From a virus: a stretch of 33,487 nt of DNA. The DNA lies in the UHGV virus genome UHGV-0364569. One strand, written 5' to 3'. Each line of letters begins with the position of its first letter. Position 1 is the first letter of the stretch. Both the position numbers and the translations under genes were made by a program. The notes below the pieces were generated by a model. That model searched no databases, had not been told where the DNA came from, and saw nothing but the letters and a program-made list of their open reading frames with translations. Positions 7,520-26,820 of the stretch are shown piece by piece.

Positions 7520-7523
7520 TGTG

Positions 7524-8324
7524 TTATAATGTAGTTGTGCCGTTGACCAACCCATCCATCGTGGCCTTGACTCGCTGCTCGTCGACGTTGGATATCTTGC
7601 GGGCGTAGGCGGCCAAGGACTCAGCGAAAAGCTCGCGCTCCTGGAGACGCAATAAGTGGATGTAGCCTTGGTCCACAAAGGTCCCCAGCTGCTTGAGCAG
7701 GCAGGCCGCATCCTGCTCGGCCTGGTGCCGGCGACGCTCCAGCTCATCCGGGGGGAGATTGAGGGCGGCCAGGTCATTGGCCAGCTTGTCCATAGGGGTG
7801 AGGGCCAGCGCTCCGTCAGGGTTGCCGGCTCCAGTAAATCCCAGGGGCTTAACCCGGTCATGCGTTGTCCGCTTGCGGGTAGAGATAACTCCCAGGTTGA
7901 GCATCATTTGGCGGGGAGTTTCGGCCCCGTCGGTGGTCTTGTCCACCAGGGCGGCCAGATCATTTACAGGCTCGCCGCTCAGCCCTGCGTCCAGGAGATA
8001 CCTCTCTACATTGGCCAATCGCCCGGCGGCTGTCTTGTAGCAGCGCATGTACTGATTGGCTGATCGACTCGTAAATTCAAATCGGAAGCATGATTCCGAT
8101 TTGGAGTCATTATTTCTGTTGAATAACTTTTCCCATCCCCCATGCGGTGTTACGGCCTTAAGCTCGGTCAGCAGCTTACCCAGCTTGAGTCCTGCCGTCA
8201 CGGCATTGCGGCCAGCGCATGCCGCCATCTCGGCTTGAGCCTGGGCATACCGGTGCAGGCGGTTGGCTTCGCTGACGTCTAACTCCACACGTGTGGAGAA
8301 AGGGATACTTAACTCAATTTTCAT
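7524..8324 (-). CDS. DUF3102-family protein (266 aa), commonly found next to the transposase in Mu-like prophages
   Basis: HGGWEKLF and SRSANQYMRCYK motifs match the DUF3102 pattern. Position is between ner and A. Confidence 0.7.
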   Translation of the reverse strand: MKIELSIPFSTRVELDVSEANRLHRYAQAQAEMAACAGRNAVTAGLKLGKLLTELKAVTPHGGWEKLFNRNNDSKSESCFRFEFTSRSANQYMRCYKTAAGRLANVERYLLDAGLSGEPVNDLAALVDKTTDGAETPRQMMLNLGVISTRKRTTHDRVKPLGFTGAGNPDGALALTPMDKLANDLAALNLPPDELERRRHQAEQDAACLLKQLGTFVDQGYIHLLRLQERELFAESLAAYARKISNVDEQRVKATMDGLVNGTTTL

Positions 8325-8731: not shown

Positions 8732-8935
8732 TTACTTGCTCCTCCTCATCCTTGTTAATCTGCGATAAGGCAGTGCATCAACTTTGGCTGTTAGTCGCTT
8801 AGAAACACGACGTCCCGTCAGCACCATATAAAGATGTTGTCGGGACACACCTAGAAATAAGGCAGCATCACTGATAGTCCATCCCATTGCCAGTAGACGC
8901 TGTATGGCGGTCGGCTCTTGTGTTGTTGAGATCAT
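8732..8935 (-). CDS. ner: Ner-like DNA-binding regulator (67 aa, HTH)
   Basis: GWTISDAALFLGVSRQHLYMVLTGRR is a Ner/Nlp-type HTH. It is the first gene of the early operon, divergent from the repressor. Confidence 0.8.
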   Translation of the reverse strand: MISTTQEPTAIQRLLAMGWTISDAALFLGVSRQHLYMVLTGRRVSKRLTAKVDALPYRRLTRMRRSK

Positions 8936-8950
8936 TATGTTAGATGTTTG

Positions 8951-9007
8951 TTTTGTAACGCGTGACTGCGTTACTCGTTACAAGAACGAATTAACATCTG
9001 TGTTAAC
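8951..9007. promoter_or_regulatory. divergent operator region between ner and the repressor: GTAACG/CGTTAC repeats (8955-8981) and the palindrome TTAACA-tctg-TGTTAA (8991-9006)
   Basis: The inverted repeat GTAACGcgtgactgCGTTAC plus a direct repeat CGTTACtCGTTAC, then a second palindrome immediately upstream of the repressor ATG. Confidence 0.55.
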
Positions 9008-9011
9008 TTCT

Positions 9012-9362
9012 ATGCAAGAAAAAAGTTTACAGCTAGGGCAATTTTCCAAGCGCCTAAAATATGCAATTAAACAGAAGAGAATAACACAGAGAGAGTTAGC
9101 GCAACGTGTAAATATTTCTCCTGTAACAATATCTCGCTACATGTCATCAGATGTGCAAACACCAGGAGCGTGGGAACTATACAGGATTGCTAATGCTCTG
9201 GACGTGTCGATGGAATGGTTATTAACTGGTGATAATCCTCCTAATGATACTAAGTGGCAACAACGAGCAGCTACTGCCGAAGCAAAATTAGCATCATTTA
9301 AATTAGGACTACGCAATTTAACTGAGACAGTTTCTTCATTAACTCAAATAATTACAGATTAA
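9012..9362 (+). CDS. XRE-family HTH repressor (116 aa; alternative start at 8937)
   Basis: QRELAQRVNISPVTISRYM is an HTH_XRE motif. The gene is divergent from ner-A-B and low-GC. The C-terminus is helical, consistent with dimerisation. Confidence 0.8.
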   Translation: MQEKSLQLGQFSKRLKYAIKQKRITQRELAQRVNISPVTISRYMSSDVQTPGAWELYRIANALDVSMEWLLTGDNPPNDTKWQQRAATAEAKLASFKLGLRNLTETVSSLTQIITD

Positions 9363-9368
9363 ATAGTT

Positions 9369-9701
9369 ATGAATAATATTTTACGAATTTTTGTAATTGT
9401 TGTAGGGACTGTCCTTGTTATCACGACTGGAATAATTGCGTATTATTTGCGTACTCTCTCAACTGATATCCAGTACATCCACGAACTAAATAAGCAGAAA
9501 ATCCACAAAACATATAAGCAAGATTATGAATATCAATGCAAGAGGTTATATTTGTTTGCTGACGGCAAAATAGATTATCTTGATAAGTTTATGCAAGATG
9601 GGTGGCAGGTTTGCTCATTTGTGGGGGTTGTACATGATGCTGACAGGACCAGAGGAGGAGAAGGACATGTCTACGTTGTCCTACGTCGTCCTCGATCTTG
9701 A
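9369..9701 (+). CDS. single-TM membrane protein (110 aa), AT-rich moron co-transcribed with the repressor; superinfection-exclusion/abortive-infection candidate
   Basis: An N-terminal hydrophobic helix (IFVIVVGTVLVITTGIIAYYL) precedes a roughly 75-aa soluble domain. The start is 7 nt after the repressor stop. Codon usage is atypically AT-rich for this element. Confidence 0.6.
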   Translation: MNNILRIFVIVVGTVLVITTGIIAYYLRTLSTDIQYIHELNKQKIHKTYKQDYEYQCKRLYLFADGKIDYLDKFMQDGWQVCSFVGVVHDADRTRGGEGHVYVVLRRPRS

Positions 9702-9771
9702 TTGACGTATGACACAGCGCAACATCCTGATCATAAATTTTATACATCTAACAAGCGTAACGAATTCATAA

Positions 9772-9779
9772 TAAATTTG
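9772..9779 (+). promoter_or_regulatory. TAAATTTG box (matches the Bacteroidota sigma-A -7 consensus TAnnTTTG) about 47 nt upstream of the methyltransferase ATG
   Basis: An exact TAnnTTTG match. Related TAAATTTT boxes occur at 9734-9741 and 32551-32558 (upstream of the glycosyltransferase). Confidence 0.35.
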
Positions 9780-9825
9780 TTGCGGCGTTAGAGAGAGGCG
9801 CTTGCGTGAGCTATGCTCGCGTCCG

Positions 9826-10510
9826 ATGACCAACACACATACCATGTTACACGGGGATTGCATGTCCCTGATGATGACGATGCCGGAGGCATCCTATGAT
9901 GCCGTGATCACCGATCCTCCCTACGCCAGCGGCGGCCTCTCATCCGCCGCCAGAGCACAAGACCCGCGCGTCAAGTACCAGTTGTCCGGCACCCGTAAAT
10001 ATTACCCGACGTTTGCCAATGACAACCGCGACCAGCGTACCCACCTGATGTGGTCCGTGCGGTGGATGGAGCAGGCCCTGCGCCTGACGCGCCCCGGCGG
10101 CTGGCTGATGGTATTTGCCGATTGCTGGATGGACCTGGAGAGGTATCATCCCGTGGGACAAGACGGAGAGTTGCCGTCCCCAAATGGGCCTTTACCGCAA
10201 CCAGGCGGAGTACGTGCTGACCGCCACGCATGGAGGATACGACAAGTCCATCAAGCTATGCCCTCCAGGAGTGGTGCGCGAGCCAATCCGCCCCAAGGAC
10301 AAGCTCCACCTGACGGGCAAGCCGATACCCCTAATGGAGCACCTTATGACCATCCTGCCTGCCAAGTCCCGCATCCTGGACCCGTTTGCGGGATCGGGCA
10401 CCACGTTGGTGGCCGCCCGCAACAAGGGCCACACAGCCGTGGGGATTGAGCTATCCCCGGACTACCACCGCATCGCCTCGGACCGGCTCGGCTTGGTACT
10501 GCCTGCTTGA
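9826..10510 (+). pseudogene. beta-class N6-adenine/N4-cytosine DNA methyltransferase, disrupted by a +1 frameshift near 10127-10144
   Basis: The N-terminal half (frame of 9802; GDC...DAVITDPPY...LRPGGWLMVFAD) and the C-terminal half (frame of 10115; IIPWDK...AEYVLTATHGG...DPFAGSGTTLVAA) are both methyltransferase-like but lie in different frames. No slippery homopolymer occurs at the junction. Confidence 0.7.
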
Positions 10511-11623: not shown

Positions 11624-12226
11624 ATGACCTACGCAGAGTTACAATCCAACACACTGGCGTGGCAGCGCGCCCTCAAATTTGCCGGATTTTACCGGGGCCA
11701 GCTTGACGGCATCACCGGTCCGCTGACCCGTGAGGCGGCGGCCCAGTGGCGCGAGAGCCATCAACAGCTCCAGACCCGCTACGGCCGGCTGGACAAGCGC
11801 ACGGAGGACAACCTGCTTACCCTCCAGCCTCTGGCCGCGCTCAAGGTGCGCCAGATGATGACGGCCCTGCGCGGTCTTGCCGACTGGCGGCTCATCTGCG
11901 GACTCCGCACCTACGACGAGCAAGACAAGCTCTACGCCAAGCGCCCCAAGGTGACCAACGCCAGGGGAGGGCAGTCCATGCACAATTTTGGCATTGCGGC
12001 CGACGTCTGCCTGTTTAGGGACGGCCGTGATATCTGGGCACCCAGCGAGGGACCGGACTCCATCTATAAGCCCGTGGCGGCCCTGGCCCATAAGCTGGGT
12101 CTGGTGTGGGGTGGAGACTGGCGCTCGCCCTACGATCCCGGCCATGTCCAGCTGGGCTCCCTCCCCACGGCCACCCTCCACCGCGCTTACACCACCGGGG
12201 CCAGCACGCTGGCCCAACTGCTCTGA
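11624..12226 (+). CDS. endolysin: N-terminal peptidoglycan-binding domain plus M15 (VanY/L-Ala-D-Glu) zinc peptidase
   Basis: LQRALKFAGFYRGQLDGITGPLTREA is a PG_binding_1-like segment. GGQSMHNFGIAADV...WGGDW...DPGHVQL are M15 peptidase motifs. Confidence 0.85.
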   Translation: MTYAELQSNTLAWQRALKFAGFYRGQLDGITGPLTREAAAQWRESHQQLQTRYGRLDKRTEDNLLTLQPLAALKVRQMMTALRGLADWRLICGLRTYDEQDKLYAKRPKVTNARGGQSMHNFGIAADVCLFRDGRDIWAPSEGPDSIYKPVAALAHKLGLVWGGDWRSPYDPGHVQLGSLPTATLHRAYTTGASTLAQLL

Positions 12227-13418: not shown

Positions 13419-14870
13419 ATGTCCTCCTCCCTGATCACAACGCCACTGGATCTGCTGCTGCCTTACCAGGCGCAGTGGGTGGCGGACGAGAGCCGGTTTA
13501 AGGCCGGCATCTGGTCCCGTCAGTCCGGTAAGGATTTTAGCACGGCCGCCGAGGCGGTGAGGGATGCGATGATCAGGCCCAAGACCACCTGGATGATCGC
13601 AGCCCCCTCCGAGCGCCAGGCGATGGAGTCGCTGTCCAAGTGCAAGGAGTGGGCGGAGGCATTTAGCGTCGCACTGGCTGCCGAGGAGATTGAGCGCCAG
13701 GACGGCCCCAACACCCTGCTCAAGTCCGGCTCCATCACGTTTGACAACGGCAGCCGCATCCTGGCTGTCCCCGGCCGGCCGGATACCGTGCGAGGCTTTA
13801 GCGCCAACCTGGTGCTGACGGAATTCGCATTTTTCGAGGACCCCGATGCGACGTGGCGTGCAGTGCTCCCATCCATCACCAATCCCCTCCGGGGCGGTGA
13901 GAAAAAGGTCCGCCTCATTACTACCCCCAACGGCAAGACGGGTCGTGGCGCCAGGACGTACAAGATCATCAACGACAACCTGCTTAACCCCAGGGAGGGC
14001 CGCAAGCAGCACTGGTCCTGCCATGTGGTGACCATCGCCAAGGCAGTGGAGGATGGCCTCCCGATCGACATCGACGAGCTCCGCGAATCCTTGGACGACC
14101 CCATTGGTTGGGCTCAAGAGTACATGTGCGAATTCCTGGACAGCAGCAACGTGCTGCTGCCCTACGACCTGATCGCCACGGCTGAGTCGGCAAGTGCCAC
14201 GGTGTCCTGCGACCCGGCCATCTACCTGGGCAACAAGCTGGACCTGCGCCTGGGCATCGACTTTGGACGCACCAACGACCCGACGGTCTGCTGGACATTG
14301 GAGCGGGTGGGGGACGTGCTCGTCACCCGCGAGGTACTGGTGCTGCGCAACATGTCCGTGCCCGACCAGATGGAGGTACTGCGCCACCGCATCAAGGCGG
14401 CCAGACGCGTCTGCTACGACTACACGGGTGTGGGCATCGGCATGGGCGATGTCCTGGTCAAGGAGTTTAAGCGCTGGCATCCGGAGGGCCATGAGTATGG
14501 CAGGATCGAGCTCTGCACGTTTACGCCTGCGTTTAAGCGCCTCATCTTCCCGCGCCTCCGCCAGGCCTTTGAGGCTCCGACCCGCGTCCGCATCCCCATC
14601 GACGTGGAGGTGCGCGAGGACCTGCACGCCATGCAGCAGATATTTAGAGGTACGGACTACAGCTACGAGGCCCCGCACACCAGGGAGGGACACTCCGACC
14701 GGTGCACGGCCCTGGCTCTGGCCCTGCGCGCCGCCGACGGCCACGTGCAGCACCATCTCCCGGCCCCAGGCACCGGCCGCATCATCACGGGAGCGGGCCT
14801 GTTTGGCGGCCGCTCCCACGGCTCGCTCTTTGGCGGCCGTCCCATCCTACATCAACTCCTGGCAGCATAG
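13419..14870 (+). CDS. terminase large subunit (Mu gp28-like)
   Basis: A 483-aa product with ATPase and nuclease halves, sitting between TerS and the portal. Confidence 0.85.
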   Translation: MSSSLITTPLDLLLPYQAQWVADESRFKAGIWSRQSGKDFSTAAEAVRDAMIRPKTTWMIAAPSERQAMESLSKCKEWAEAFSVALAAEEIERQDGPNTLLKSGSITFDNGSRILAVPGRPDTVRGFSANLVLTEFAFFEDPDATWRAVLPSITNPLRGGEKKVRLITTPNGKTGRGARTYKIINDNLLNPREGRKQHWSCHVVTIAKAVEDGLPIDIDELRESLDDPIGWAQEYMCEFLDSSNVLLPYDLIATAESASATVSCDPAIYLGNKLDLRLGIDFGRTNDPTVCWTLERVGDVLVTREVLVLRNMSVPDQMEVLRHRIKAARRVCYDYTGVGIGMGDVLVKEFKRWHPEGHEYGRIELCTFTPAFKRLIFPRLRQAFEAPTRVRIPIDVEVREDLHAMQQIFRGTDYSYEAPHTREGHSDRCTALALALRAADGHVQHHLPAPGTGRIITGAGLFGGRSHGSLFGGRPILHQLLAA

Positions 14871-14871
14871 T

Positions 14872-16626
14872 ATGATCAGACGACTCTACAACTACATCCT
14901 CCACCGCAGGCCCCATGCAGAGGGCGTGCAGCGGGCGCTTACCGCGCCGGACAAGGCATCCCAGGACAGCAAGCCGGCCATGTTTGCCGCACTCGCCCTG
15001 GCCGAGCTGGACAAGGTACGCCGCCGCCAGATTGAGCGCGTGTGCCCGCTGGACTACCTGAGCGTGGATACCATACGGCGCTGCCTGCAGGACTGCCAGC
15101 TGGGCGCCTATGCCGAGCAGCAGTGGATCTGGGAACAGATGGAGCGCTACGACGCCATGCTGATGACCTGTATTACCAAGCGGGACGACGCTCTGAGCAA
15201 GTACGACTGGTCTATCACGGTCAAGCCGGACCTGGACGACCGCGACAGCCTGCTGGCCGAGAGCCAGCAGCGCACCATTACCGACCTGTGCAACGCCATC
15301 GTTAACATGGACGAGGCCATCACCTCCCTGTCCCAGGCGTCCCGCCGGCACTACAAATTCTTGCAGCCCTACGCCGACAGCGATGGCCTGCATCTGTTGC
15401 CCATTGACAACTGGCTGATGTGCCGGGACGGCTACCGGGGTCCCTGGGGGTACAATCCCAACGCCCAGTTTGGCCGCTACCGGGGAGAGGCCTTGCCGGT
15501 CCCGCTGGACGACCTCATCCTGCGCCTGCATCCCCGGCCCATCGACATGCCCGCCCAGATGCTGGTGCTTAACCGTAGCACGACGCTGGCCCAATGGGAC
15601 GTGTTCTTGGAGAGGCTGGGTACGCCGCCGGCATTTTTTGTGCTTCCTCCTGACTGCTCCGAGGAGCTGCGTCAGGAGTACATCAAGATGTCGGCCATGT
15701 GCTACTCGGCGGCCACCGGCGTCATCGACCACGACTCCGATATCAAGTCCATCCCGATATCCCAGACGAGCGTCGACTTGTTTGACCGCCGTTACAAGGT
15801 GGCCACCGAGGAGATCGCCATGCTGACCACGGCCGGCAAGCTCACGGTCATGACCGAGTCGGGCTCCGGTACCTTGGCCGGGGGAGCACAGGCCGACGGA
15901 TTTGCCGACTGGGCCGGCGGCGAGGCATCCTCCATCGCCTCTGTACTGACAGTCCAGCTGGTCAACCGGGTGCTGGATGAGTACCACCCCGGCCAGCCGC
16001 ACCTGGTGAATTTTACGCTCTCCTGCGTGGACAAGACCACGCCGGACAAGGAGATTGCCAACGCCGCCGCCCTGCGTGCCGCCGGCTACGACATCGACGA
16101 CGCCGAGGTCAGCGAGCGCACCGGCTGGCAGGTGACCGCCGGGGTCTCCTCCTCCCAGCTCTACGCCATCAAGGCCGCCGGCTACGTGCCCCAGCAGCAG
16201 GCCATGGAGGGTGTCGTCAAGATGCCCCTGCAGCCCGCCCCCCAGGAGACGCCCTACACGCTTAACTCCCGCCGCCGAGACGCCCTCACTACCCTGGCTC
16301 TGCACCGCAGCACCACACTCTGGGAGCCAGCCCGCCTCCGTCTGGAGGAGGTGGTCGCCCACCGCCTGCAAGACATCGACAAACGCCTGGAGCGGGTCAC
16401 GCTGGAGATGCTGCCCCTCTCCCCGGCGGAGCAGGCCCAGCTGGCCCTGATGCTGCAGGTCCCCGGAGAGGAGGAGATCGTCTCCACCGCACTCCAGATT
16501 GCCCGACGCCTCCAGGAGGCCCGCAACGAGGGGAGACGCCGCGCGGCGGCCATTGACCCGTCTCTCACATTATCCACCCCTGCACGACCCCTGCACGGCG
16601 CAAATTCAGCCCAATCCAACGCATGA
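14872..16626 (+). CDS. portal protein (Mu gp29-like, DUF935), 584 aa
   Basis: First ATG after the TerL stop. The upstream part of the 810-aa track ORF overlaps TerL in another frame and is artefactual. Confidence 0.8.
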   Translation: MIRRLYNYILHRRPHAEGVQRALTAPDKASQDSKPAMFAALALAELDKVRRRQIERVCPLDYLSVDTIRRCLQDCQLGAYAEQQWIWEQMERYDAMLMTCITKRDDALSKYDWSITVKPDLDDRDSLLAESQQRTITDLCNAIVNMDEAITSLSQASRRHYKFLQPYADSDGLHLLPIDNWLMCRDGYRGPWGYNPNAQFGRYRGEALPVPLDDLILRLHPRPIDMPAQMLVLNRSTTLAQWDVFLERLGTPPAFFVLPPDCSEELRQEYIKMSAMCYSAATGVIDHDSDIKSIPISQTSVDLFDRRYKVATEEIAMLTTAGKLTVMTESGSGTLAGGAQADGFADWAGGEASSIASVLTVQLVNRVLDEYHPGQPHLVNFTLSCVDKTTPDKEIANAAALRAAGYDIDDAEVSERTGWQVTAGVSSSQLYAIKAAGYVPQQQAMEGVVKMPLQPAPQETPYTLNSRRRDALTTLALHRSTTLWEPARLRLEEVVAHRLQDIDKRLERVTLEMLPLSPAEQAQLALMLQVPGEEEIVSTALQIARRLQEARNEGRRRAAAIDPSLTLSTPARPLHGANSAQSNA

Positions 16627-17864
16627 GCAACTACCGAGACAGATACATCGCCCGCGGCATCCCGGATTTTGACCCGGCTGCCTGCGCTCCGTACCCCGTC
16701 GGCCAGGTCCCGCAATCAGGCTGGTACCTGATTGAGCCGGCCGGCACCTACACCATCCCGGTGCCCGACACCTCCATCGCCCCAGGCAAGCGCTGGGACG
16801 TGGACGAGGTCATCGACGAGGCAGCACTGCAGGCCATCTGCGAGTCCTACGATCCTGCCATCAACGGCGGCAACGGCATCCAGGTCAACAACGACCACCT
16901 GCATCTGCGCACCACCGGCGATAACCCGGCCCTGGGCTGGTGCAAGGCGCTGGACTACGGCCGGGTCGACGGCAGCCTCTACCAGGCTGCCTACATCGCC
17001 TGGGTCAAGGACACCCACCATGACCTCAACCAAGGCAAGTACTGGGCATTTAGCACCGAGTACAAGCTGGCCGACTATAAGCGCGTCTACGACAACGGCT
17101 ACAGCCCGACGCGCCTGTCCGGTCTGGCCGTCACCAACAACCCGGACCACGAGGCCCAGCCGGGCATCATCCGCCAATCCGCTGCAGGCGATGTGGTCGT
17201 CCACAGCCGCAGTGCCACCATCTCCCAAACCACAACCATGAGCAAGAAAGCAACACAGCAACGGGTCCTGCACTCCGACGATGCCGCCGGAGATGAGGAA
17301 AAGAAGAAGCAAGAAACCAACACCAACAATGACAATCCTTCGCCCGCTACCACGGAGGAGGAAAAGAAAAAGGAAGACGAAACCAATACCAACAACGACG
17401 ACCAAAACAAAGACGAAACCAACTGCAACTCGGACGACGAGGGCTGGCTGGGGATCTGTAACGAGATCGCCAAGGCACTCAACCTGTCCGAGACCGCGAC
17501 CGGGGACGACATCCTCAAGGCCGTGACGGATCTCAAGACGGATTTTGATTTGCTCAAGCAGCAGGTCGATGAGTCCAACGGAGGCTCCGTTGCCCACAAC
17601 AGGGCACCCCTGCCGCGACAGCTGCATAACAAGGGCAACCAGCAGCGCATGGACCCCAAGGTCACTCCTGCGGGTGTGATCACCCACCGCACGCCGGAGG
17701 GCAAGGCCGTCAAGGTGCCGCAGAGCGACGTCGATCTGGTGGCCCATTGCCGCAAGGCCGTGGACGCCGAGGTCACCAAGCACGGCCGCGCTCTGACTCC
17801 GGGCGAGTACAACCGCACCTGGACCAGGGCTGCGGAGGAATTCACGTCCTCACGCAGCAAATAG
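16623..17864 (+). CDS. head maturation protease fused to scaffold (Mu gpI/Z-like), 413 aa
   Basis: The N-terminal domain resembles the Mu-like prophage I protein. It has an acidic low-complexity linker with an internal tandem repeat and a helical C-terminus. It shares an ATGA overlap with the portal. Confidence 0.75.
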   Translation: MSNYRDRYIARGIPDFDPAACAPYPVGQVPQSGWYLIEPAGTYTIPVPDTSIAPGKRWDVDEVIDEAALQAICESYDPAINGGNGIQVNNDHLHLRTTGDNPALGWCKALDYGRVDGSLYQAAYIAWVKDTHHDLNQGKYWAFSTEYKLADYKRVYDNGYSPTRLSGLAVTNNPDHEAQPGIIRQSAAGDVVVHSRSATISQTTTMSKKATQQRVLHSDDAAGDEEKKKQETNTNNDNPSPATTEEEKKKEDETNTNNDDQNKDETNCNSDDEGWLGICNEIAKALNLSETATGDDILKAVTDLKTDFDLLKQQVDESNGGSVAHNRAPLPRQLHNKGNQQRMDPKVTPAGVITHRTPEGKAVKVPQSDVDLVAHCRKAVDAEVTKHGRALTPGEYNRTWTRAAEEFTSSRSK

Positions 17865-18364: not shown

Positions 18365-19333
18365 ATGAGCACATCTGCAACTTACGCCGTCAACCTGCCG
18401 CTGACCAACTACATCGTCGGCTGGTACGGCACTCAACTCCACGACCCGGCACGCTTTCTTGCTCCGGGTGTCAAGGCCCCCGGCTTGCTGACCTCCTACA
18501 AGCGCTACCTGCGCCAGGACGCATTTGCGGTCTCCGATACCCGGCGCGGCATGTACGAGGCACCTCGCACCATCGACATCCAGGGAGAGGACCTCCCGGT
18601 CATGTTGGAGGAGCACACCCTCAAGATCGGCATCGACGACCGCGAGCTGCTCGGTGCCATCGACCAGGAGGTCTACCGTAACAGCCTGCGCCAGGCCAAG
18701 ACCCGGGGACTGGCCCGCCGCATGTTGATTAGCCACAACAAGGAGGTGTTTGATTACGCCAACTCCATCATCCCCAGCATCACCAAGGTGGGCGACACCA
18801 ACGAGGCCAACAAGTGGACCAACCTGGACCTGCCCTTGGCGGATATCCTGAAAAAGATGGCTAAACAATTTGCTCGGAACAATGGAGTCTATCCCAACCG
18901 CATCCTGACTACGGGCGATATCTGGGACCTTGTTGAGGCCAACAAGCAAATCCAGTACAAGATGGGTGAGGGGTCTCCCAAGGTACTCACCCAGGACAAG
19001 TTCCTGGATTTTATCGGTCTAAAAGGAGACGACATCCCGCCGGTCAAGATCATGCGCTCCATCGCCTCCTACAATCCCGGAGGCGTGGCGGGAGCAGAGG
19101 TGGACAACGTCAGCATCGTGGGCAGCAATTTCTACTTGTTTTACGCTGACGACGATCCGAGCCCATTTGACATCACGGCGCTCAAGACGCTCAACATCGC
19201 CGGAGACGACATGTACAGCACGGTGGAGACCTACCGCGACGACGACATCTCCACAGAGTGGCTGCGCATCAAGGGCCACCACAAGGTGGTCTTCTCGGCT
19301 CCCTCCTGCATGATGCGCATGCAGATCGCCTAA
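18365..19333 (+). CDS. major capsid protein (Mu gpT-like), 322 aa
   Basis: Size, position and overall pattern fit the Mu-like major head subunit family. Confidence 0.8.
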   Translation: MSTSATYAVNLPLTNYIVGWYGTQLHDPARFLAPGVKAPGLLTSYKRYLRQDAFAVSDTRRGMYEAPRTIDIQGEDLPVMLEEHTLKIGIDDRELLGAIDQEVYRNSLRQAKTRGLARRMLISHNKEVFDYANSIIPSITKVGDTNEANKWTNLDLPLADILKKMAKQFARNNGVYPNRILTTGDIWDLVEANKQIQYKMGEGSPKVLTQDKFLDFIGLKGDDIPPVKIMRSIASYNPGGVAGAEVDNVSIVGSNFYLFYADDDPSPFDITALKTLNIAGDDMYSTVETYRDDDISTEWLRIKGHHKVVFSAPSCMMRMQIA

Positions 19334-19417
19334 TGCAGAGTGGAGTGTGGAGAGTTAAGAGTTGAGATGCTCTTGCCTCCACGCTCCCTCTCAATTAACA
19401 CTCAACCCTCAATCAAG

Positions 19418-19969
19418 ATGGCAACCAAGAAATCAACCAATACCAACAATACTTACGCTCCTCAGGCTCCCGCCCAGGAGGCGGCCCCCACCAATACCGA
19501 CCATAACCAGACCACGCCGACCGTGGAGGACACCGCTGCCGAGGCATCCACACCGGAGCCTGCAGCCAGTCCCACCCATCAAGCTGCCGTAGATACCCCC
19601 ACGGCTGCTGACAAGGGTGATGGCACCAACCAGGAGGCAGGGGACGATCCCGGCCCCAACATGACCAGTCACGATTACGATGCCCTGCATGGTCTGACCT
19701 CCAACGTCCATGACGACAGTGCCACCGGAGAGCAGCCTCCCCTCGCCCTCCTGACTGCCGAGCGGATTGGATTGACTCCCAGACAGCACGTGACATCCAT
19801 CATCGCCGGAGGCGTGATCAGCGGCATCCTGGCCCGGACCAAACCTTACGAGGTGCTCGACCTGCGCAAGGCAGCCGAGGCCATCGGCATGTGTGACACG
19901 ATCGTCGATATGATCCTGCACCTCGACGATCCCGCCCCGGAGTCCCCGGACGAGCAACCCAACTCTTAA
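19418..19969 (+). CDS. hypothetical 183-aa late protein with a T/N/P/A-rich N-terminal module
   Basis: ATG preceded by the CT-rich leader. The GTG start at 19340 in the track is unlikely. The N-terminus is paralogous to that of 23310..23522. Confidence 0.5.
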   Translation: MATKKSTNTNNTYAPQAPAQEAAPTNTDHNQTTPTVEDTAAEASTPEPAASPTHQAAVDTPTAADKGDGTNQEAGDDPGPNMTSHDYDALHGLTSNVHDDSATGEQPPLALLTAERIGLTPRQHVTSIIAGGVISGILARTKPYEVLDLRKAAEAIGMCDTIVDMILHLDDPAPESPDEQPNS

Positions 19970-19995: not shown

Positions 19996-20463
19996 ATGTC
20001 AAGCTGGATCACATTGACGGCGGACATGCTCACGGAGGCCATCGACCGAGCGGAGCTGGAGGCCATCACGGCCGCCGACACGGATGGCACCGTCATCCCC
20101 GGCATCATCCAGGACGTGACGGCAGCCGTGCGCGAGGCCATTGCTGCCAACGCCGCCAATGTGATGGACCTGCAGAGCGACACCACCATCCCGCGCACGC
20201 TCAAGCCGGAGGCCCTGGACATGATCGCCTGGCGTCTGCTCAAGCGGTTTGCGGTGATGGTCTCCGAGGACCGGGATAAGGCCAACACAGCCGCCCGCGA
20301 GCGGCTGGAGGCCGTCCGGGCCGGCACCCACCGGGTGATCGGTCCGGATGGCCGCATGCCCGTGCCTCCCGGTAAGCGCCCCTACGTCCAGGGACCGCGC
20401 CCTGCCTACGGCTCCGGAGCTCCGGGGTTGTTCCCGTCCCCCGGACGGGGAGTTAACAGGTAA
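19996..20463 (+). CDS. Mu gp36-like protein (DUF1320), head completion/connector candidate
   Basis: 155-aa product with a DUF1320-like N-terminal pattern. Confidence 0.5.
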   Translation: MSSWITLTADMLTEAIDRAELEAITAADTDGTVIPGIIQDVTAAVREAIAANAANVMDLQSDTTIPRTLKPEALDMIAWRLLKRFAVMVSEDRDKANTAARERLEAVRAGTHRVIGPDGRMPVPPGKRPYVQGPRPAYGSGAPGLFPSPGRGVNR

Positions 20464-20507: not shown

Positions 20508-21902
20508 ATGCCCTCTCCCTCGGATATCATGCGTGCCAAGGTCACGGTGCCTGCTGCCGGCATGTCGTCGGCGGACTGGGACGGCGTGGACCCGGATATC
20601 CGCGAGCGCTCCTACTGGACGGCCAGGCAGGGGCACTATGCGCGTGTGCAGGGATTTAGGGATCGCTCCCAGGGCATTGTGGACGGCAACCTGTCCGAGG
20701 CCGACGCCCTGCGCGAGGTCCGCGCGATGCTCAAGGCCACCGGCTACCAGCCGGAGCCCGGCACAGAGGGCACCATCCAGGACCTCAACTCCGACGCCCG
20801 CCAGCGCCTGATCCTGGAGACCAACGTGGCCATGGTCCAAGAGCGAGCCTACCGGGACTCCATGATGGGGTCGCTGGCCTATCCGGCCCAGCGTCTGGTG
20901 CGTATCCGTTACAGCCGCCAGCCCAGGGACTGGGCCGCCCGCTGGAGGGAGGCGGCGGCGGCCGTCAACTACGAGGGCGTGGCCACCGACGGCTCCCACA
21001 TCGCGCTGCTTACCTCGCCCATCTGGCGCAAGCTCAGCCGATTTGACCTGGACTATCCTCCGTTTGATTTTAACTCCGGCATGGGGGTTGACCCGGTTGA
21101 CTACGAGGAGGCTCAGCGCCACGGCCTGGTTATCCCGGAGGCGACGGTGGATGACATGGACGGCGAGTCACTCAACGCCAGCCTGGAGGCGTCCATCGCC
21201 AAGATGGACGGCGACCTGCAGCAGGCATTTGTCGAGGCTCTGGAGGATTGCGTGGAGGTGGAGGGAGACCGCGTCTACTACACCGACCCCAACGGCACCC
21301 GCCCGGTGCACTGGAGCGAGGCCGGGCGTGTGATCTGCGGGCAACGCCCTCCCGTCATCCCGGACACCCAGGCCAGGGCCATGGTCAAATTCGTGGAGGA
21401 CCAGCGTAAATTCGACCGGGCGCAGCGCGGAGTCCAGGACTACGCCACCCAGGAGGAGTGGGACGCCCTCTACGATGCCGTCAACCGCATCAAGCCCACC
21501 GACGTCCGGGAGAGCGGCACGCTCTACCGGGGCATGTCCATCGACCCCAACAACGCCGACCAATTCCTGGCTGCCATCAAGCGCGACGGCTACCAGGCAT
21601 TGCCCACCAAGATGGTGGACAGCTGGTCACGCACGGAGGAGACAGCGCAACGGTTTGCCGCTGCCGGCAAACCGGGCAACGAGAGGATCATCCTTGTCAA
21701 CGATGACTACCGCTCCGGCCACCGCATCGACACCATCGTCCGCACTCTCCAGGAGCAGAGGCGTCTTGTCAACAAGTCCGACCAGCATCCCCATACCAAC
21801 GAGAGCGAGGTCCTGTTCATGCAGGGCGTGCGCCACGGGGTCAACAAGATCGTCCGGGGGAGGGACGGTACACCCACCTACGTCTATGTCAGCGAGCAGT
21901 AA
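20508..21902 (+). CDS. MuF-domain head-morphogenesis protein fused to a C-terminal R-S-E-class ADP-ribosyltransferase toxin domain (464 aa)
   Basis: aa 95-195 are MuF-like (RQRLILETNVAMVQERAYRD...YPPFDFNSG). aa ~300-464 carry ART motifs: LYRG (R341, nt 21528-21530), SWS (372-374, nt 21621-21629) and ESEVLF (E432/E434, nt 21801-21809). Confidence 0.7.
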   Translation: MPSPSDIMRAKVTVPAAGMSSADWDGVDPDIRERSYWTARQGHYARVQGFRDRSQGIVDGNLSEADALREVRAMLKATGYQPEPGTEGTIQDLNSDARQRLILETNVAMVQERAYRDSMMGSLAYPAQRLVRIRYSRQPRDWAARWREAAAAVNYEGVATDGSHIALLTSPIWRKLSRFDLDYPPFDFNSGMGVDPVDYEEAQRHGLVIPEATVDDMDGESLNASLEASIAKMDGDLQQAFVEALEDCVEVEGDRVYYTDPNGTRPVHWSEAGRVICGQRPPVIPDTQARAMVKFVEDQRKFDRAQRGVQDYATQEEWDALYDAVNRIKPTDVRESGTLYRGMSIDPNNADQFLAAIKRDGYQALPTKMVDSWSRTEETAQRFAAAGKPGNERIILVNDDYRSGHRIDTIVRTLQEQRRLVNKSDQHPHTNESEVLFMQGVRHGVNKIVRGRDGTPTYVYVSEQ

Positions 21903-21909
21903 TAACAGA

Positions 21910-22140
21910 TCAACCCTTACGCTGGAGATGGCGGTTCTGGCGGCCGTTGTCATGGCGGCCGCTTACAAACGGTCTGGCCGGCTGCCAGCCCTGGGCGCGG
22001 GCGCGGCTTTCCCAGTCGGACGGCTCCGGCCGGGTGGTGGTTGCAGCATCGCGCGGTCTGGCCAGCTCCTTGAGCCACCAGCGCAGGTCGCGGTTGCTGA
22101 TCTTGCCGTCCATCCCACTCATGTCCCCCTTATGCCTCAA
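21910..22140 (-). CDS. antisense small basic protein (76 aa) in the gap after the MuF-ART gene; immunity/regulator candidate
   Basis: Strong GC3 bias in this frame (about 80 percent G/C at codon position 3), unlike the plus-strand shadow frame. An AAGGGTTGAGG motif precedes the ATG. Confidence 0.3.
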   Translation of the reverse strand: MRHKGDMSGMDGKISNRDLRWWLKELARPRDAATTTRPEPSDWESRARAQGWQPARPFVSGRHDNGRQNRHLQRKG

Positions 22141-22160
22141 CCCTTAACCGATGTCAACTC

Positions 22161-22799
22161 ATGATCAGGTTGCACGTAGATGTGATTGGCCTTAACCGGC
22201 TCCCCCTGGCTCCTGCCATCCGCACGGAGATGGTGGCCGATGTAGCCAGGGCTGCCCGCCAGGCGGTGAGGGATAGCTTTCAATCCATGCTCGACCGCAC
22301 CCAGTCCCAGGGATTCTGGGGCAAGGCCAAGCGATCAGTCAACCCTCCCGTCATCCGGGACAACAAGGCCACCATCGACATCACCCACATCGGCGTGCGC
22401 CTGCAGTGGCTGGGCGGCACCGTCAAGCCCTCCGGCCGCAAGTCAGAGGTGACCGGCCGCCGCATCAAGAGCCTGCTCATCCCGTTTAGGGACTCACCAC
22501 TCCGCCGGCGCTCCCTGGCCAGCCTCCACATCCCGGATGAGGAGGTCATGGTCCTGGGCGACGTCGATACCGGCAGCGCCATCCTGGCCCGCGTCAAGCA
22601 GCGTAAGCGCCGCAACAAGGACGGCCGCTACCAGGACGTCACACCACTGGGTGCCCTGGTCAAGTCCGCCACCATCCCGGCCCATCCGGAGGTGATGCCC
22701 TCCCGCGAGCAGATGCGCGAGTATGCCGTGCACGCCGCCACCCTGGTCCTCAACCGCCTCCTGCCCCAAGCCGACGACAACTCCACTCTCAACTCTTAA
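22161..22799 (+). CDS. virion morphogenesis/tail-completion-like protein (212 aa)
   Basis: The pattern TEMVADVARAARQAVRDSFQ...FWGKA recalls the phage virion morphogenesis (gpG/gpS-like) family. Confidence 0.45.
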   Translation: MIRLHVDVIGLNRLPLAPAIRTEMVADVARAARQAVRDSFQSMLDRTQSQGFWGKAKRSVNPPVIRDNKATIDITHIGVRLQWLGGTVKPSGRKSEVTGRRIKSLLIPFRDSPLRRRSLASLHIPDEEVMVLGDVDTGSAILARVKQRKRRNKDGRYQDVTPLGALVKSATIPAHPEVMPSREQMREYAVHAATLVLNRLLPQADDNSTLNS

Positions 22800-23555: not shown

Positions 23556-24137
23556 ATGTCTAGATTTATCATCCCCGGCCTGATCATCGGCTCCAAGGTC
23601 AGCATCGCCAAATTCGGAGCCTCCATCGGCAGCGGCGACCAGGCCAAGACCGTGTCTGCAGACTGGCTGCCCGTCCCTCCGAGCGACGAGGACCCCGGTC
23701 CCTGGCTCTACATGGGCAAGGTCCGCACCAGCAACCCCCAGATTGAGCCCAAGACGGCCGAGCTTGAGGGTACCGGCGGCGGGGGCACCTACGAGACCGA
23801 GGAGATGCAGCTGGTCACCAAGCGTAAATTCTTGTTTGCCAGCAACTACATCACCCCGGAATTCCTGCAGTTGTCCTTTGGCCTCAAGGAGGACTGGGGC
23901 ACGGAGCAGGTTGTGTTTGCCGCCGGCTCCACGCAGATCGACGTCTACGTCTACACGGAGTGGACCGACGCCTACCGCGACGGCGCCAGGATCATGAGCG
24001 CCTGCATGCAGGGCCGCCTGCGCTTGGTCAACCCGGCCAAGGCGGCCTCCGATCCGTCCCTGGCCGAATTTGAGCTCAGCGTTGTTTACAACCCGCTCTG
24101 CAAGCTGACGCCTGACGCGGACTATCCGGCGGCCTAA
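23556..24137 (+). CDS. tail tube/major tail protein-like (193 aa)
   Basis: Size and beta-rich pattern. It shares the ACTAATCACT leader with the major capsid gene. Confidence 0.5.
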   Translation: MSRFIIPGLIIGSKVSIAKFGASIGSGDQAKTVSADWLPVPPSDEDPGPWLYMGKVRTSNPQIEPKTAELEGTGGGGTYETEEMQLVTKRKFLFASNYITPEFLQLSFGLKEDWGTEQVVFAAGSTQIDVYVYTEWTDAYRDGARIMSACMQGRLRLVNPAKAASDPSLAEFELSVVYNPLCKLTPDADYPAA

Positions 24138-24213
24138 GCACGCCACTTCCTCCCGGCGATCCCGCCGGGAGGAACCTTTCTCAACTCTCCACTCTCCTCC
24201 CCCCCACACTGAT

Positions 24214-26820
24214 ATGATACTCCTGATTGACTTGGCCACCATGGCCGTCATGCACCCCGGCGGCATACCGGTCACCGACCTGTCCCTGGTGCGCGGCGAT
24301 AAGCTGCCCCTGCGCATCACTCTGCTGGATGAGGGCACTCCGGTGACTCCCTCCGGCACAAGGCCGGCGCTGGCCGTCAAGACCGCCCTGGGTGACGATA
24401 CCCTGGTCCTGGCCGCCACCAACCTGGAGCCGGTCGACGACGCTCTGGGGCTGGCTTATGTTGGCAGCTTGTCGGTCAACACGACTCAGTTGATCGCAGC
24501 CATGGGCAGCGCCGATCGCATCGACCTGGTCGCGGAGGTGGTCATTATTGACGGAGACGGCTCCCAGAGTACATCATCCCTGATCAAGGTAAGAGTGCGC
24601 CAGGATATCATGCCGGCAGACGTCGTCCCTCCAGATGACGTCATCGTCAACTGGGAGGAGATGGTGGCCGCATCCCTGGCCAACCAGCTGCCAGACGCCT
24701 TGCACAACGCCGGCATGTATGTCACTCCGGCCAGCGGCACGGCATCCATGTCGCCTCCCGGCTATGACCAGGACCAGACCGTGGCATGGTCATGGGCTCG
24801 GTTTATATTTGGCGATGACCTCTTGACCGGTTATGTCGGATCGATCTGCAAGGTGCGTGACGTGTACATGTGGGCAGTCCTCGGCACGACGGACACCACA
24901 CCGCGCTGGCTGGACATCTGGCGACGTGCTCCGGGCGGGGACTGGGTATTGGCGGCACGATCCAGTCAGGCCGTAGCATCCAGCACTGACGTGGACCTGT
25001 ACATGTGGGGGATGATTGCCGATACGGATATTGTAATCGGGGACGAGGTGGCGCTGCACGTCTATGGTGGCACGCCCGAGGCGCCAGTGGAGATCCCCCT
25101 GTCCATCGCCCGGCAGATGGTGACGGCAGCCGACGGGCGCGGGATTGCGTCTGCGCTGGACGGACCGATTACCGATGCCACCGTCATGCCCGCAATGATG
25201 TTGTCCTGTACTTATCAGGACGGCGTCAGCGTGGGAGGGGTTAATCTGGCCACCCGCGCCGAGGTGCAGCGGTTGACGGATTATGCTGCCGCTACCAGCA
25301 AGCAGACATACCAGGATGCCCGCGCATCCGAGGCGGCCAGGGACGCAGCTCAGGAGATTGCCGAGGGTCTGGCCATCACTGTTGGCACGGTCACGACGGG
25401 CGAGCCAGGCAGCCAGGCAACCGCCTCCCTGACACCCGGCAGCACGCCGGGATCGTGGCAACTGGACATGACTATACCGCGCGGGGACGTGGGCGCTGTG
25501 GACACCTCCAAATCCTACACATGGACACAGCCACAGGTATTTGATGCCACCGTCACGGCATCCAGGGGCGTGCGTGTGCCTCTTCCCGCCACGGCCCAGG
25601 AGGCGCTATCCTATGAGGCGCTGCTAGAGCAACAGACGGCGGATGATTGGCGGCGGGCGAACTACTACATGGAGACGCTGATCCCGTCTTGGGTGACAAC
25701 ACTGGTGCGGCAGATGCAGATGTCCGACGCTTATAATGTAGTCACGGCCAACGCATCCTCTAAGGAGGCGGTGTATACCAACGATCTGCACGATTTTTTG
25801 ATTACCATGATGCCCTCCGCCGGTGTGTCTTTGATTGGCCGATCTACAGGCGCGTGGAAATTTGCCAATTACATGGGAGATCATAACAATAGTGCTTATG
25901 CCGCCGCCGTTGTATGGCGGATTATCGGCTCTGACAAGGCGTCTATCCTGCTGGGGAGCACATCCCAAGGGTACTCATCGACAACTAATCCGGCAGCGCC
26001 CTGTTATGCTCACCCCATCCATTGGGCTGACTACAATCTGGACGCAGCGGATTACAGGTATCCGTTGCTCAACGCAGTCAATAATTACACCAGCCGGGAC
26101 ATGGCACCCGCATGGCAGGTGACGATTTATCCCACAAGCTACCTGGGGAGTACGACGTCTTGCCTGATCCGAGGCACGGATTATGGGCGCGACGTTGGCG
26201 ACCAGCTATATATGTGGGCGCTTGTGCCCAAGATCACTTACGTTGCCGTGGCAATGGCACCCCGCGCAGCCGCCGATCATCAAAACACGATGAACAGATG
26301 GGAACTGTTTGTCGACGGCAATTATGTTATGCCGATGACATCCTTGTTTTGTGGCAGCGGCCACACGGCCTGCGTCACAGTTAAGGCCAAGGCTCACGAG
26401 GCAAGCAGTACCTTGCAAGTGGGGCTGCGTATGGGAGGCATGAGGATTGACGCAGCCCCCGCGCTGGGGGTCAACGATGTACGATCCATTATGGGGCGCG
26501 TGGTGATGGACGGAGTAACGGCCAAGCCTATGCCGGCGGTGACGGCTTCCGCGCTGGATGTACCTGCGGAGGGCGGTGAGGTAACGCTGACGGTATCGTC
26601 CACGCTGTCCGAGGCGGTTTATATACTCAACGATACCATGTGCGGGCATGACCCCGCCGCCGTATGGTGCATGCAGTCCTCTGAGCAGACACCAGCCGGA
26701 GGCGGCCAGATCACCCTGACGCTGGCTCCCAACACGACTGGCCAGCCCCGGCAGGTGTGGGCGTTTGTCGGCCATCACTACGCCCAAGCCTCCGTCGTCA
26801 AGATTAACCAATTAGCTTAA
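24214..26820 (+). CDS. large virion structural protein (868 aa) with a C-terminal BACON-like Ig domain; sheath-position or fiber/adhesin
   Basis: The C-terminus ALDVPAEGGEVTLTVSS...AVWCMQSSEQTPAGGGQITLTLAPNTTGQPRQVWAFVGH...VVKINQ fits the BACON/Big-like consensus. A GEPGSQATASLTPGSTPGS linker is present. It is flanked by tube-like and chaperone-like genes. Confidence 0.55.
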   Translation: MILLIDLATMAVMHPGGIPVTDLSLVRGDKLPLRITLLDEGTPVTPSGTRPALAVKTALGDDTLVLAATNLEPVDDALGLAYVGSLSVNTTQLIAAMGSADRIDLVAEVVIIDGDGSQSTSSLIKVRVRQDIMPADVVPPDDVIVNWEEMVAASLANQLPDALHNAGMYVTPASGTASMSPPGYDQDQTVAWSWARFIFGDDLLTGYVGSICKVRDVYMWAVLGTTDTTPRWLDIWRRAPGGDWVLAARSSQAVASSTDVDLYMWGMIADTDIVIGDEVALHVYGGTPEAPVEIPLSIARQMVTAADGRGIASALDGPITDATVMPAMMLSCTYQDGVSVGGVNLATRAEVQRLTDYAAATSKQTYQDARASEAARDAAQEIAEGLAITVGTVTTGEPGSQATASLTPGSTPGSWQLDMTIPRGDVGAVDTSKSYTWTQPQVFDATVTASRGVRVPLPATAQEALSYEALLEQQTADDWRRANYYMETLIPSWVTTLVRQMQMSDAYNVVTANASSKEAVYTNDLHDFLITMMPSAGVSLIGRSTGAWKFANYMGDHNNSAYAAAVVWRIIGSDKASILLGSTSQGYSSTTNPAAPCYAHPIHWADYNLDAADYRYPLLNAVNNYTSRDMAPAWQVTIYPTSYLGSTTSCLIRGTDYGRDVGDQLYMWALVPKITYVAVAMAPRAAADHQNTMNRWELFVDGNYVMPMTSLFCGSGHTACVTVKAKAHEASSTLQVGLRMGGMRIDAAPALGVNDVRSIMGRVVMDGVTAKPMPAVTASALDVPAEGGEVTLTVSSTLSEAVYILNDTMCGHDPAAVWCMQSSEQTPAGGGQITLTLAPNTTGQPRQVWAFVGHHYAQASVVKINQLA

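Follow-up and report, generated by a model that had tools for sequence, protein, structure and literature searches.

The 464-residue product of one gene in the UHGV virus genome UHGV-0364569 is probably a modular, phage head-associated effector, in which a MuF module is joined to an R-S-E ADP-ribosyltransferase (ART) domain, with a proposed route of delivery and a proposed immunity partner. The whole stretch of DNA analysed (33,487 nucleotides, referred to as the window) comes from a temperate Mu-like phage of Akkermansia (Verrucomicrobiota). The features of the gene and its surroundings are listed in Table 1.

Table 1. Positions of the fusion gene, its parts and its neighbours in the window.
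Feature	Position	Strand	Remarks
Mu Gp36-family head-completion gene, upstream	19996..20463	+	Pfam PF07030 Phage_Mu_Gp36, E = 4.3e-7; order same in relatives
Complete MuF-like/ART fusion gene	20508..21902	+	ATG start, 464 aa plus stop; ORF and translation
N-module, aa 1–212, divergent Mu gp30 (MuF)-type head-protein domain (predicted)	20508..21143	+	Ends in nearly invariant YPPFDFNSGM
Disordered linker, aa 213–224	21144..21179	+	pLDDT <50 at aa 213–220 (AF2); length varies in alignments
Middle region, aa 225–300, bridging N-module and ART core	21180..21407	+	Invariant DPNGT (260–264)
R-S-E mono-ADP-ribosyltransferase domain (predicted), aa ~301–464	21408..21899	+	
R341 codon	21528..21530	+	LYRG (339–342); NAD-binding arginine of triad
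S372-W373-S374 codons	21621..21629	+	S-x-S, 'STS' motif
E432-S433-E434 codons	21801..21809	+	ExE, ARTT loop, catalytic glutamate; ESEVLF (432–437)
70-aa small gene, candidate immunity/neutralising protein	21910..22122	-	Fills 259-bp gap after ART gene
212-aa conserved gene, probably structural neck/tail	22161..22799	+	Directly 3' in all related loci, toxin-less included

The reading frame and the motifs LYRG, SWS and ESEVLF had been named in a preliminary description, and were recovered exactly where it had placed them. Homologs of the 464-residue protein fell into 36 close clusters, with further distant members besides. The AF2 model of the protein had a mean pLDDT of 90.1. The protein matched no Pfam family at E ≤ 10 and nothing in PADLOC, and none of 56 family members gave a direct ART or MuF match in Pfam. 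PHROGs returned one weak match, 'minor head protein', over the ART region. Two candidates from searches of the PDB, myoferlin C2 (aa 170–221, single-sequence search) and SBDS (whole-family profile), were rejected as chance matches (E > 0.009) that bear no relation to the fold results. In the middle region, residues D260–T264, P281, Q288 and A291 were invariant (alignment A2), and the same region recurred in homologs carrying different C-terminal tails and in an ART-only chromosomal fragment (P0035).

Agreement of fold, profile and transitive homology supports the C-terminal domain as an R-S-E (C3/VIP2/Vis-type) mono-ADP-ribosyltransferase, a predicted enzyme. The full triad claimed in the preliminary description was borne out in order and spacing, with 31 residues from R341 to S372 and 60 from S372 to E432 (58 from S374). 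The Foldseek comparison suggested there was run against the PDB and returned ARTs exclusively among the 50 matches listed, 40 of them at E ≤ 1e-3. The model contains the split beta-sandwich with NAD pocket of the ART fold and superposes on active ARTs. Structural matches in BFVD included Alt/ModA/ModB-type proteins.

R341, S372 and E434 did not vary among 14 homologs at identities as low as 30% (alignment A2). Wider counts were taken at non-gap positions of 174 ART domain instances drawn from 50%-identity cluster representatives. Position 341 was R in 151 of 154 instances, position 372 was S in 156 of 168, and position 374 was S or T in 152 of 168. E434 was retained in 148 of 151, and position 432 was E, D or Q in 138 of 147. 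Conservation of the triad was at least 93% across these diverged instances, and the motifs took canonical forms (aromatic-R-G, S-[WF]-[ST] and [EDQ]-x-E). Some alleles were frameshifted within the ART domain (P0027 and P0036), and truncated annotations were numerous.

An exhaustive search with the C-terminal profile yielded 355 relatives; a word-indexed search with the same profile added almost none. In P0140, P0161, P0186, P0204 and P0223 the region matched by the profile was Pfam ADPrib_exo_Tox/ART, and several of these proteins additionally bore Phage_Mu_F or portal domains. Alignment to the ADPrib_exo_Tox repeat of P0140 (hhalign) paired all three motifs, including YRG, with EKE placed opposite ExE. 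Matches of the profile to PDB sequences were sub-threshold and ART-enriched, and set the ExE opposite the ExE strand of XopAI. The link to PF03496/PF01129 is transitive only, via the profile-matched proteins. The ExE motif of ARTs is associated with an arginine acceptor, and from this motif arginine is the probable acceptor of the domain.

The N-module appears, by remote homology only, to be orthologous to Mu gp30 (MuF), though highly divergent from it, an assignment that is supported by profile comparison. MuF is a minor head protein that lies inside the capsid with the portal. The family profile was aligned to gp30 with an hhalign probability of 96.15 (E = 2.8e-9, 192 columns), query residues 5–223 corresponding to gp30 11–207, which fully covers the PF04233 span in gp30 (aa 59–188). 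Among 154 Mu/SPP1 ORFs, gp30 was the sole match of the N-module HMM (E = 3.4e-14). Identity between the two was about 18%, and the relationship was detected only by profiles: Mu gp30 used as a single-sequence query matched nothing in the window. PF04233 was matched neither by the 464-residue protein nor by any of 56 homologs, and in a control search gp30 itself matched it at E = 6e-32. SPP1 gp7 had no detectable similarity, and was not matched by the N-module HMM among the 154 Mu/SPP1 ORFs. The preliminary description had named a MuF/SPP1-gp7-like domain; the MuF part of that proposal stood through the gp30 homology, whereas similarity to gp7, a match to PF04233, the CRC terminus and adjacency to the portal were not found.

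The motif YPPFDFNSG (aa 183–191), which had been placed at the position of the MuF terminus, held that position in the alignment. YPPFDFNSGMGV was paired by hhalign with YPPNGWNCRCRV of gp30, with PP and N retained and C-R-C replaced by S-G-M. P185, F186, S190, G191 and M192 were nearly invariant across the N-module family, and so was SGM in place of the MuF CRC. No solved structure resembling the N-module was matched. BFVD entries that matched over both domains included proteins of Raoultella, Xanthomonas and mycobacteriophages, and the annotations of such matches were 'head morphogenesis' and 'minor capsid'.

The portal gene ends at 16626 and is followed by a protease gene; the fusion gene comes four genes later, behind the gp36-like gene. 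This order, not adjacent to the portal, was the same in all relatives examined. No other gp30-like ORF was found in the window with the N-module HMM. As the sole gp30-like gene of a phage in which the portal is followed by a protease, the fusion gene most simply fills the MuF role. Portal-linked packaging of its product is less certain, because MuF genes are usually portal-adjacent (PMC5576092) and this one is not. The 212-aa downstream gene had no match in Pfam, PHROG or PADLOC. The genome encodes a Mu-type portal, protease I, gp36, Gam, a MuB/TniB-like ATPase and a CI-type repressor, and the same element was found integrated in a 669-kb scaffold, as a prophage of a temperate phage. A probable Bacteroidota host had been suggested earlier; the host is Akkermansia, which is named on contigs of up to 1.1 Mb. 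MAG labels of Oscillospiraceae and Collinsella, carried by short contigs, were rejected as mis-binning.

Members of the family carry the N-module alone (258–282 aa) or followed by the ART, a PBECR3-like tail or a tail of another kind. Exchange of C-terminal domains behind one fixed N-terminal head module is the architecture of polymorphic toxins. On 21 contigs the ART-only fragment stood beside the small ORF, with neither a MuF module nor phage genes; a three-gene chromosomal remnant also retains the 212-aa downstream gene. Since the ART-only fragment persists in chromosomes, the ART may be of use even where no capsid delivers it.

The 70-aa gene on the opposite strand is the candidate neutralising partner. 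Gene calling recovered it in related loci too, and its family comprised 35 clusters (66–100 aa), in which full-length members reached identities as low as 35%. The N- and C-termini were conserved, all indels were in frame, and an AAGGGGG Shine-Dalgarno was conserved 4 nt before the ATG. Substitutions showed a third-position bias (9/3/15 and 7/4/16). The toxin-less homolog locus had no spacer, its gene overlapping the next by 4 nt, and ART-bearing loci had an extra ORF of 59–100 aa or a spacer of about 230–260 bp. The small ORF is thereby linked to the toxin and absent from the toxin-less form, as in MuF polymorphic toxins, 89% of which are accompanied by a small downstream ORF (PMC5576092). 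In the present clade it lies on the minus strand, which sets the candidate apart from the described MuF immunity genes.

The same locus can be read differently, and this reading comes close to an even chance: the minus-strand ORF would have nothing to do with the ART. It would be a moron, a gene with a regulatory role, or an ORF that is conserved in GC-rich DNA yet has no function, and the ART would be made only before lysis, with immunity unneeded. The opposite orientation is in its favour, as is the nature of the product, which is basic and mostly disordered (AF2 pLDDT 67, two short helices), with no confident fold and no family match. Two allelic classes of the small ORF, about 35–39% identical, were discordant with ART partners that are 86% identical, and the small ORFs downstream of distant ART loci lay on the plus strand and had no sequence relationship to the 70-aa ORF; both observations point the same way. 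The retention of the frame at 35% identity, with the in-frame indels, ribosome-binding site and substitution bias given above, argues against it. So do the confinement of the spacer to toxin-bearing forms, the retention of the ORF beside the ART fragment of the chromosomal remnant, and the frequency of such ORFs beside MuF toxins. A scan for consensus promoters and terminators around the small ORF gave nothing convincing, and no ARH or macro-type hydrolase was present among the window ORFs scanned.

The comparisons above show the identity of the two domains, the fold, the conserved catalytic residues, the exchange of C-terminal domains behind one N-module and the extra small ORF of toxin-bearing forms. 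The mechanism we infer for the head-associated effector extends to how the protein is packaged and ejected, to its activity as an enzyme with acceptor residue and targets, and to immunity conferred by the small ORF. The 464-residue protein would be synthesised late, its gene being part of the head/neck block of the temperate Mu-like Akkermansia phage, and a few copies would be brought into the procapsid by the MuF module. Upon infection it would exit the capsid along with the DNA. In the recipient cell the ART domain would ADP-ribosylate target proteins using NAD+, the acceptor probably being arginine. In cells that carry the prophage, the ART would be neutralised by the product of the 70-aa opposite-strand gene. 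The capsid delivery put forward in the preliminary description is thus kept as a prediction.

Release rather than injection was considered as an unlikely alternative, in which the protein would be made at induction and act after lysis, free or virion-bound, on neighbouring bacteria or gut epithelium, as a fitness factor or interbacterial toxin and not as an early take-over effector. The model for this is Bxa, the best characterised MuF-ART, a prophage-encoded fitness factor that affects epithelial cells and kills bacteria as well (PMC11699363). The habitat of Akkermansia is the mucus layer, and the persistence of the ART-only fragment and small ORF on 21 contigs also fits release. The sequence carries no sign of secretion or eukaryotic targeting, and the family-wide coupling with a head-protein module is consistent with virion association. 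Release and capsid delivery are not mutually exclusive.

It is considerably less probable still that the N-module does not work as a MuF and that the protein stays unpackaged, acting as a soluble late ART of the ModA/ModB kind or as a neck-associated protein. The position of the gene between gp36-like and neck/tail genes, away from the portal, would suit such a protein, as would the unmatched PF04233, the lost CRC and the want of a structural relative for the N-module. Against this are the specific and significant gp30 homology over the full MuF span, the uniqueness of the gp30-like gene in a phage whose protease directly follows the portal, and the annotation of the two-domain structural matches as minor capsid or head morphogenesis proteins. 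A catalytically dead ART serving as a structural C-terminal extension only, to which the missing direct Pfam match, the frameshifted alleles P0027 and P0036 and the many truncated annotations might point, is scarcely credible given near-universal R, S and E434 in 174 diverged instances, canonical motifs and a confident model that superposes on active ARTs.

The head-associated effector was compared with known systems. The preliminary description had regarded the fusion as a new context for MuF-ART proteins; this was overstated, because such fusions are already documented. They are frequent (PMC5576092, PMC9503650), ARTs being often fused to MuF (PMC9503650). EFV of Enterococcus faecalis V583, a MuF1-ART, is cited in PMC5576092 as experimentally characterised, and Bxa, the MuF-ART of the Bacteroides stercoris prophage PhiBxa, has been characterised experimentally with its adjacent immunity genes (PMC11699363). 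Mycobacteriophage VIP2 fusions are also among the MuF-ART fusions already described.

With the MuF polymorphic toxins (Jamet et al. 2017, PMC5576092) the present family shares a MuF-type N-module with swappable C-terminal toxins (ART, nucleases), occurrence in temperate phages and prophages, a small ORF after toxin forms and abundance in the human gut. It differs in that its N-module is missed by PF04233 and needs its own profile, and in that the gene follows a gp36-like gene and not the portal. MuF toxins were described mainly in Firmicutes (PMC5576092), and the host phylum here is Verrucomicrobiota. Bxa likewise has an R-S-E ART, for which arginine specificity was shown, and is neutralised by neighbouring small genes. 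The host and phage type differ (here a Mu-like transposable phage of Akkermansia), and the ARH1-type hydrolase immunity gene of Bxa has no ARH or macro counterpart among the ORFs scanned in this window. Mu gp30, the founder of PF04233 (protein F), shares with the N-module the homology over its residues 11–207, the 'YPP..N' segment and a Mu-like genome; its gene directly follows the portal and ends in a MuF_C tail, where the present protein has an ART tail and SGM for CRC.

The solved R-S-E mono-ARTs Vis, HopU1, Tre1, C3 and VIP2/iota were 11–21% identical to the ART domain. They are secreted, T3SS, T6SS or binary-toxin effectors and not phage head fusions. T4 Alt (with ModA and ModB) is a phage-encoded ART; Alt travels inside the head and enters the cell together with the DNA. 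It comes from a virulent myovirus and has no MuF fusion; the likeness is one of functional analogy and ART fold only.

No new principle is involved, as MuF-effector fusions, ARTs included, are already established. What is gained is that an unannotated 'hypothetical protein' of many Akkermansia prophages becomes a testable prediction, that of a virion-associated, probably arginine-specific ART with a candidate neutralising partner. The divergent, non-portal-adjacent MuF lineage of Verrucomicrobia to which it belongs escapes Pfam-based surveys of MuF toxins. A more far-reaching scenario, which is doubtful, would have an unprofiled, CRC-less MuF subfamily moved from the portal to the head-completion block. 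The immunity gene, running antisense to the late operon and expressed from the resting prophage, would shield Akkermansia lysogens from the ART of sibling phages, injected or released, and the ART would serve as a kin-discriminating weapon or colonisation factor in a gut commensal of medical prominence. The pair of ART and small ORF would have been domesticated in some Akkermansia lineages, as a chromosomal island free of phage genes. Akkermansia muciniphila is a gut commensal that has been widely studied. Bxa of Bacteroides, the only well-studied analogue, affects gut colonisation, and an Akkermansia prophage ART could accordingly bear on competition between strains, on the dynamics of phage and host or on interaction with host cells.

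The target frame translated exactly as read in the preliminary description, with YPPFDFNSG at residues 183-191, LYRG at 339-342, SWS at 372-374 and ESEVLF at 432-437, and that observation is therefore confirmed as written. No Pfam model matched the protein, even at E ≤ 10, and no Pfam ART model matched any of 56 family members. R341, S372 and E434 were invariant in 14 homologs with identity as low as 30%. A PDB sequence search with a profile of residues 296-464 gave sub-threshold matches enriched for the R-S-E ARTs XopAI, Vis, SpvB and VsdC. Exhaustive HMMER searching of 1.84 billion representatives yielded 355 relatives, some of them very large, with the matched region called by Pfam as ADPrib_exo_Tox (PF03496) or ART (PF01129). 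The homologs P0140, P0161, P0186, P0204 and P0223 combined an ART-type matched region with a Phage_Mu_F or portal domain, and hhalign of the target ART against P0140 paired YRG with YRG, S-W-S with S-S-S and E-S-E with E-K-E (probability 95.5). AF2 modelled the full-length protein with confidence (mean pLDDT 90.1), and the 50 Foldseek matches listed against the PDB were ARTs only (Vis, HopU1, Tre1, C3, XopAI, VIP2, iota and CDTa). Among 174 ART domain instances R was retained in 151/154, S in 156/168 and E434 in 148/151, and position 432 was E, D or Q in 138/147. Based on these profile, hhalign, fold and triad results, which agree with the earlier reading, the C-terminus is very probably a bona fide R-S-E mono-ART, and it is predicted, almost certainly, to be catalytically active. 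The E-x-E motif in ARTs usually accompanies an arginine acceptor, and by analogy arginine would probably be the acceptor here.

Homolog comparison defined the N-terminal module as a conserved unit of residues 1-~212 (up to ~260), found alone (proteins of 258-282 aa) or with differing C-terminal extensions. PF04233 matched no member of this family. The family profile aligned by hhalign to Mu gp30 residues 11-207 (probability 96%, E 2.8e-9), a range that wholly contains the gp30 match to PF04233 (aa 59-188). YPPFDFNSGMGV of the target was paired with YPPNGWNCRCRV of gp30, with S-G-M in place of C-R-C, which puts YPPFDFNSG where it had been proposed to lie, as the counterpart of the MuF terminal motif. 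The module HMM, searched against all 154 ORFs from the late region of Mu and a 9-kb stretch of SPP1, found gp30 alone (E 3.4e-14; next best 0.09), and in the reverse control gp30 found no other ORF of the window. In BFVD, several phage "head morphogenesis" or "minor capsid" proteins aligned across both domains (460-630 columns), including those of Raoultella phage RP180, Xanthomonas phage Xp12 and mycobacteriophages Gumball and Onyinye; T4-type Alt, ModA and ModB matched the ART part alone. No solved structure resembled the module, and SPP1 gp7 had no detectable similarity to it. Of the original MuF/SPP1-gp7-like assignment, the MuF part is supported by homology to gp30 (hhalign, reciprocal HMM), and the likeness to SPP1 gp7 is not supported. 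The module is likely, judged by sequence, to be a remote but specific gp30-type MuF homolog, and it lacks three marks by which a MuF is usually recognised, namely the Pfam match, the CRC residues and a place beside the portal.

The main features of the window, a temperate Mu-like element, are listed in the table. In Mu, gp30 is immediately after the portal, and muf genes adjoin the portal as a general rule (PMC5576092). In the window the protease comes straight after the portal, and the target gene follows the gp36-like gene; this displaced order was repeated in every relative examined.

Features of the window (+, plus strand; -, minus strand)
Feature	Position	Strand	Remark
Mu Gam homolog	2138-2665	-	
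TniB/MuB-like AAA ATPase	4427-5467	-	
HTH protein, probably transposase	5492-7861	-	789 aa
CI-type HTH repressor	8904-9362	+	
M15 peptidase	11624-12226	+	
Large terminase	13419-14870	+	
Mu-type portal	ends 16626	+	
Mu I-type protease	16623-17864	+	
Major capsid protein	18365-19333	+	
Mu Gp36-family head-completion protein	19996-20463	+	
Target ORF	20508..21902	+	ATG start, 464 aa
Small ORF	21910-22122	-	within 259-bp gap ahead of 212-aa gene at 22161

An AT-rich stretch (9001-10000, GC 0.42 vs ~0.62 elsewhere) adjoins the repressor gene where the early (minus) and late (plus) blocks diverge, and is probably a regulatory/operator region. The mechanical portal ORF (14194-16626, +; 810 aa, GTG start) shares ~680 nt with the terminase gene; in a 96%-identical locus the portal is called as 584 aa, which places the true start near 14872. 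The ORF at 19340-19969 (+), flanked by the capsid and gp36-like genes, has a long low-complexity Pro/Thr/Ala/Glu-rich N-terminal half and no family match, and its counterparts in relatives vary widely in length (99-179 aa called). In the tail region (23556-26820 and downstream; a 193-aa gene, then an 868-aa gene) no sheath-like gene was detected with Pfam or PHROGs, which suggests that the Mu-like head and transposition module are combined with a tail of siphovirus type.

The Bacteroidota host suggested earlier was wrong: near-identical proteins were found on contigs, the longest of 1.1 Mb, that bear the names Akkermansia muciniphila or Akkermansia sp., and more distant N-module homologs in other Verrucomicrobia. 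Copies 86-89% identical (loci L015, L016 and L017) were filed on short contigs under Oscillospiraceae and Collinsella MAGs; these labels clash with the Mb-scale contigs named Akkermansia and are likely to reflect phage contigs mis-binned into unrelated MAGs.

Other tails on the N-module fell into a PBECR3-like group, a second module of ~160 aa, tails that are short and helical, and a 233-aa module without assignment. The PBECR3-like tail (P0052, P0053, P0063, P0080, P0081, P0098, P0099; locus L014, 5001-6215) had a conserved LPxxWRxPDxV motif and a weak Pfam PBECR3 match (best E 0.004), PBECR3 being a phage barnase/EndoU/RelE-like nuclease; in L014 a 193-bp gap follows the gene. Two homologs, P0027 and P0036, are frameshifted: beyond about aa 347 or 402 they depart from the ART frame and run on in the alternative one, which the window also keeps open, as an ORF of 229 aa (21475-22164, +). 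They represent natural ART-dead alleles or, alternatively, errors of assembly. Many annotations in the P0028 cluster, from Akkermansia genomes, were N-truncated (190-367 aa).

Where the gene carrying the N-module meets the structural gene that follows, the toxin-less form (P0045) and its neighbour share 4 nt, and every ART-bearing locus had extra sequence: a minus-strand ORF of 70-82 aa in the target's clade, a plus-strand ORF of 59 or 72 aa in distant relatives, or a 232-bp gap. The small ORF had no family match and, modelled alone, no confident fold (pLDDT 67). It appears to be a real gene because its family spans 35 clusters (66-100 aa, full-length members at 35% identity) with conserved N- and C-termini, in-frame indels, a conserved Shine-Dalgarno sequence and third-position bias (substitutions by codon position 9/3/15 and 7/4/16); 15 codon changes were synonymous and 9 nonsynonymous. 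Two allelic classes were present, 70-71 aa and 82 aa (window vs L009, L015 and L016), with common termini and ~35-39% identity in the middle; the partner MuF-ART proteins were ~86% identical. The contrast suggests that the small gene alone has recombined or diversified quickly. Whether this candidate is an immunity gene for the ART is evenly balanced; against it are the orientation opposite to the ART gene, allelic classes that do not follow ART divergence, and the fact that the small ORFs in distant ART loci are not its homologs.

Polymorphic MuF toxins (PMC5576092) and polyvalent proteins (PMC5512222) are established MuF-effector fusions, many Alt/VIP2-family ARTs are explicitly stated to be fused to MuF (PMC9503650), and two MuF-ARTs have been characterised experimentally: the E. 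faecalis protein EFV (cited in PMC5576092) and Bxa, encoded by a B. stercoris prophage (PMC11699363). The fusion, put forward earlier as a new context, therefore adds an Akkermansia example to an established theme. The literature search found no account of this Akkermansia protein. Compared with known MuF toxins, its variant features are the divergent MuF module missed by Pfam, the displaced gene and the antisense candidate immunity gene.

A three-gene island (L011 4001-5737; same coordinates in L012) consists of P0035 (263 aa, ART-only, equivalent to aa 204-464 of the target and keeping the triad), a small ORF of 100 aa on the minus strand, and a gene for 206 aa that is homologous to the 212-aa gene in the window; its neighbours are SIS/CBS, DoxX, SATase and autotransporter genes. 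The island is a prophage remnant, possibly kept by selection. On 21 contigs these three genes persist amid ordinary chromosomal genes, which favours a serious alternative, a Bxa-like role of the target after lysis, that does not exclude the model given next. In the most likely model, the protein would be expressed late, brought into the head by its MuF module and ejected together with the DNA; it would then ADP-ribosylate targets in the recipient cell in an NAD+-dependent manner, probably on arginine, and the small ORF may neutralise the ART in prophage-carrying cells.
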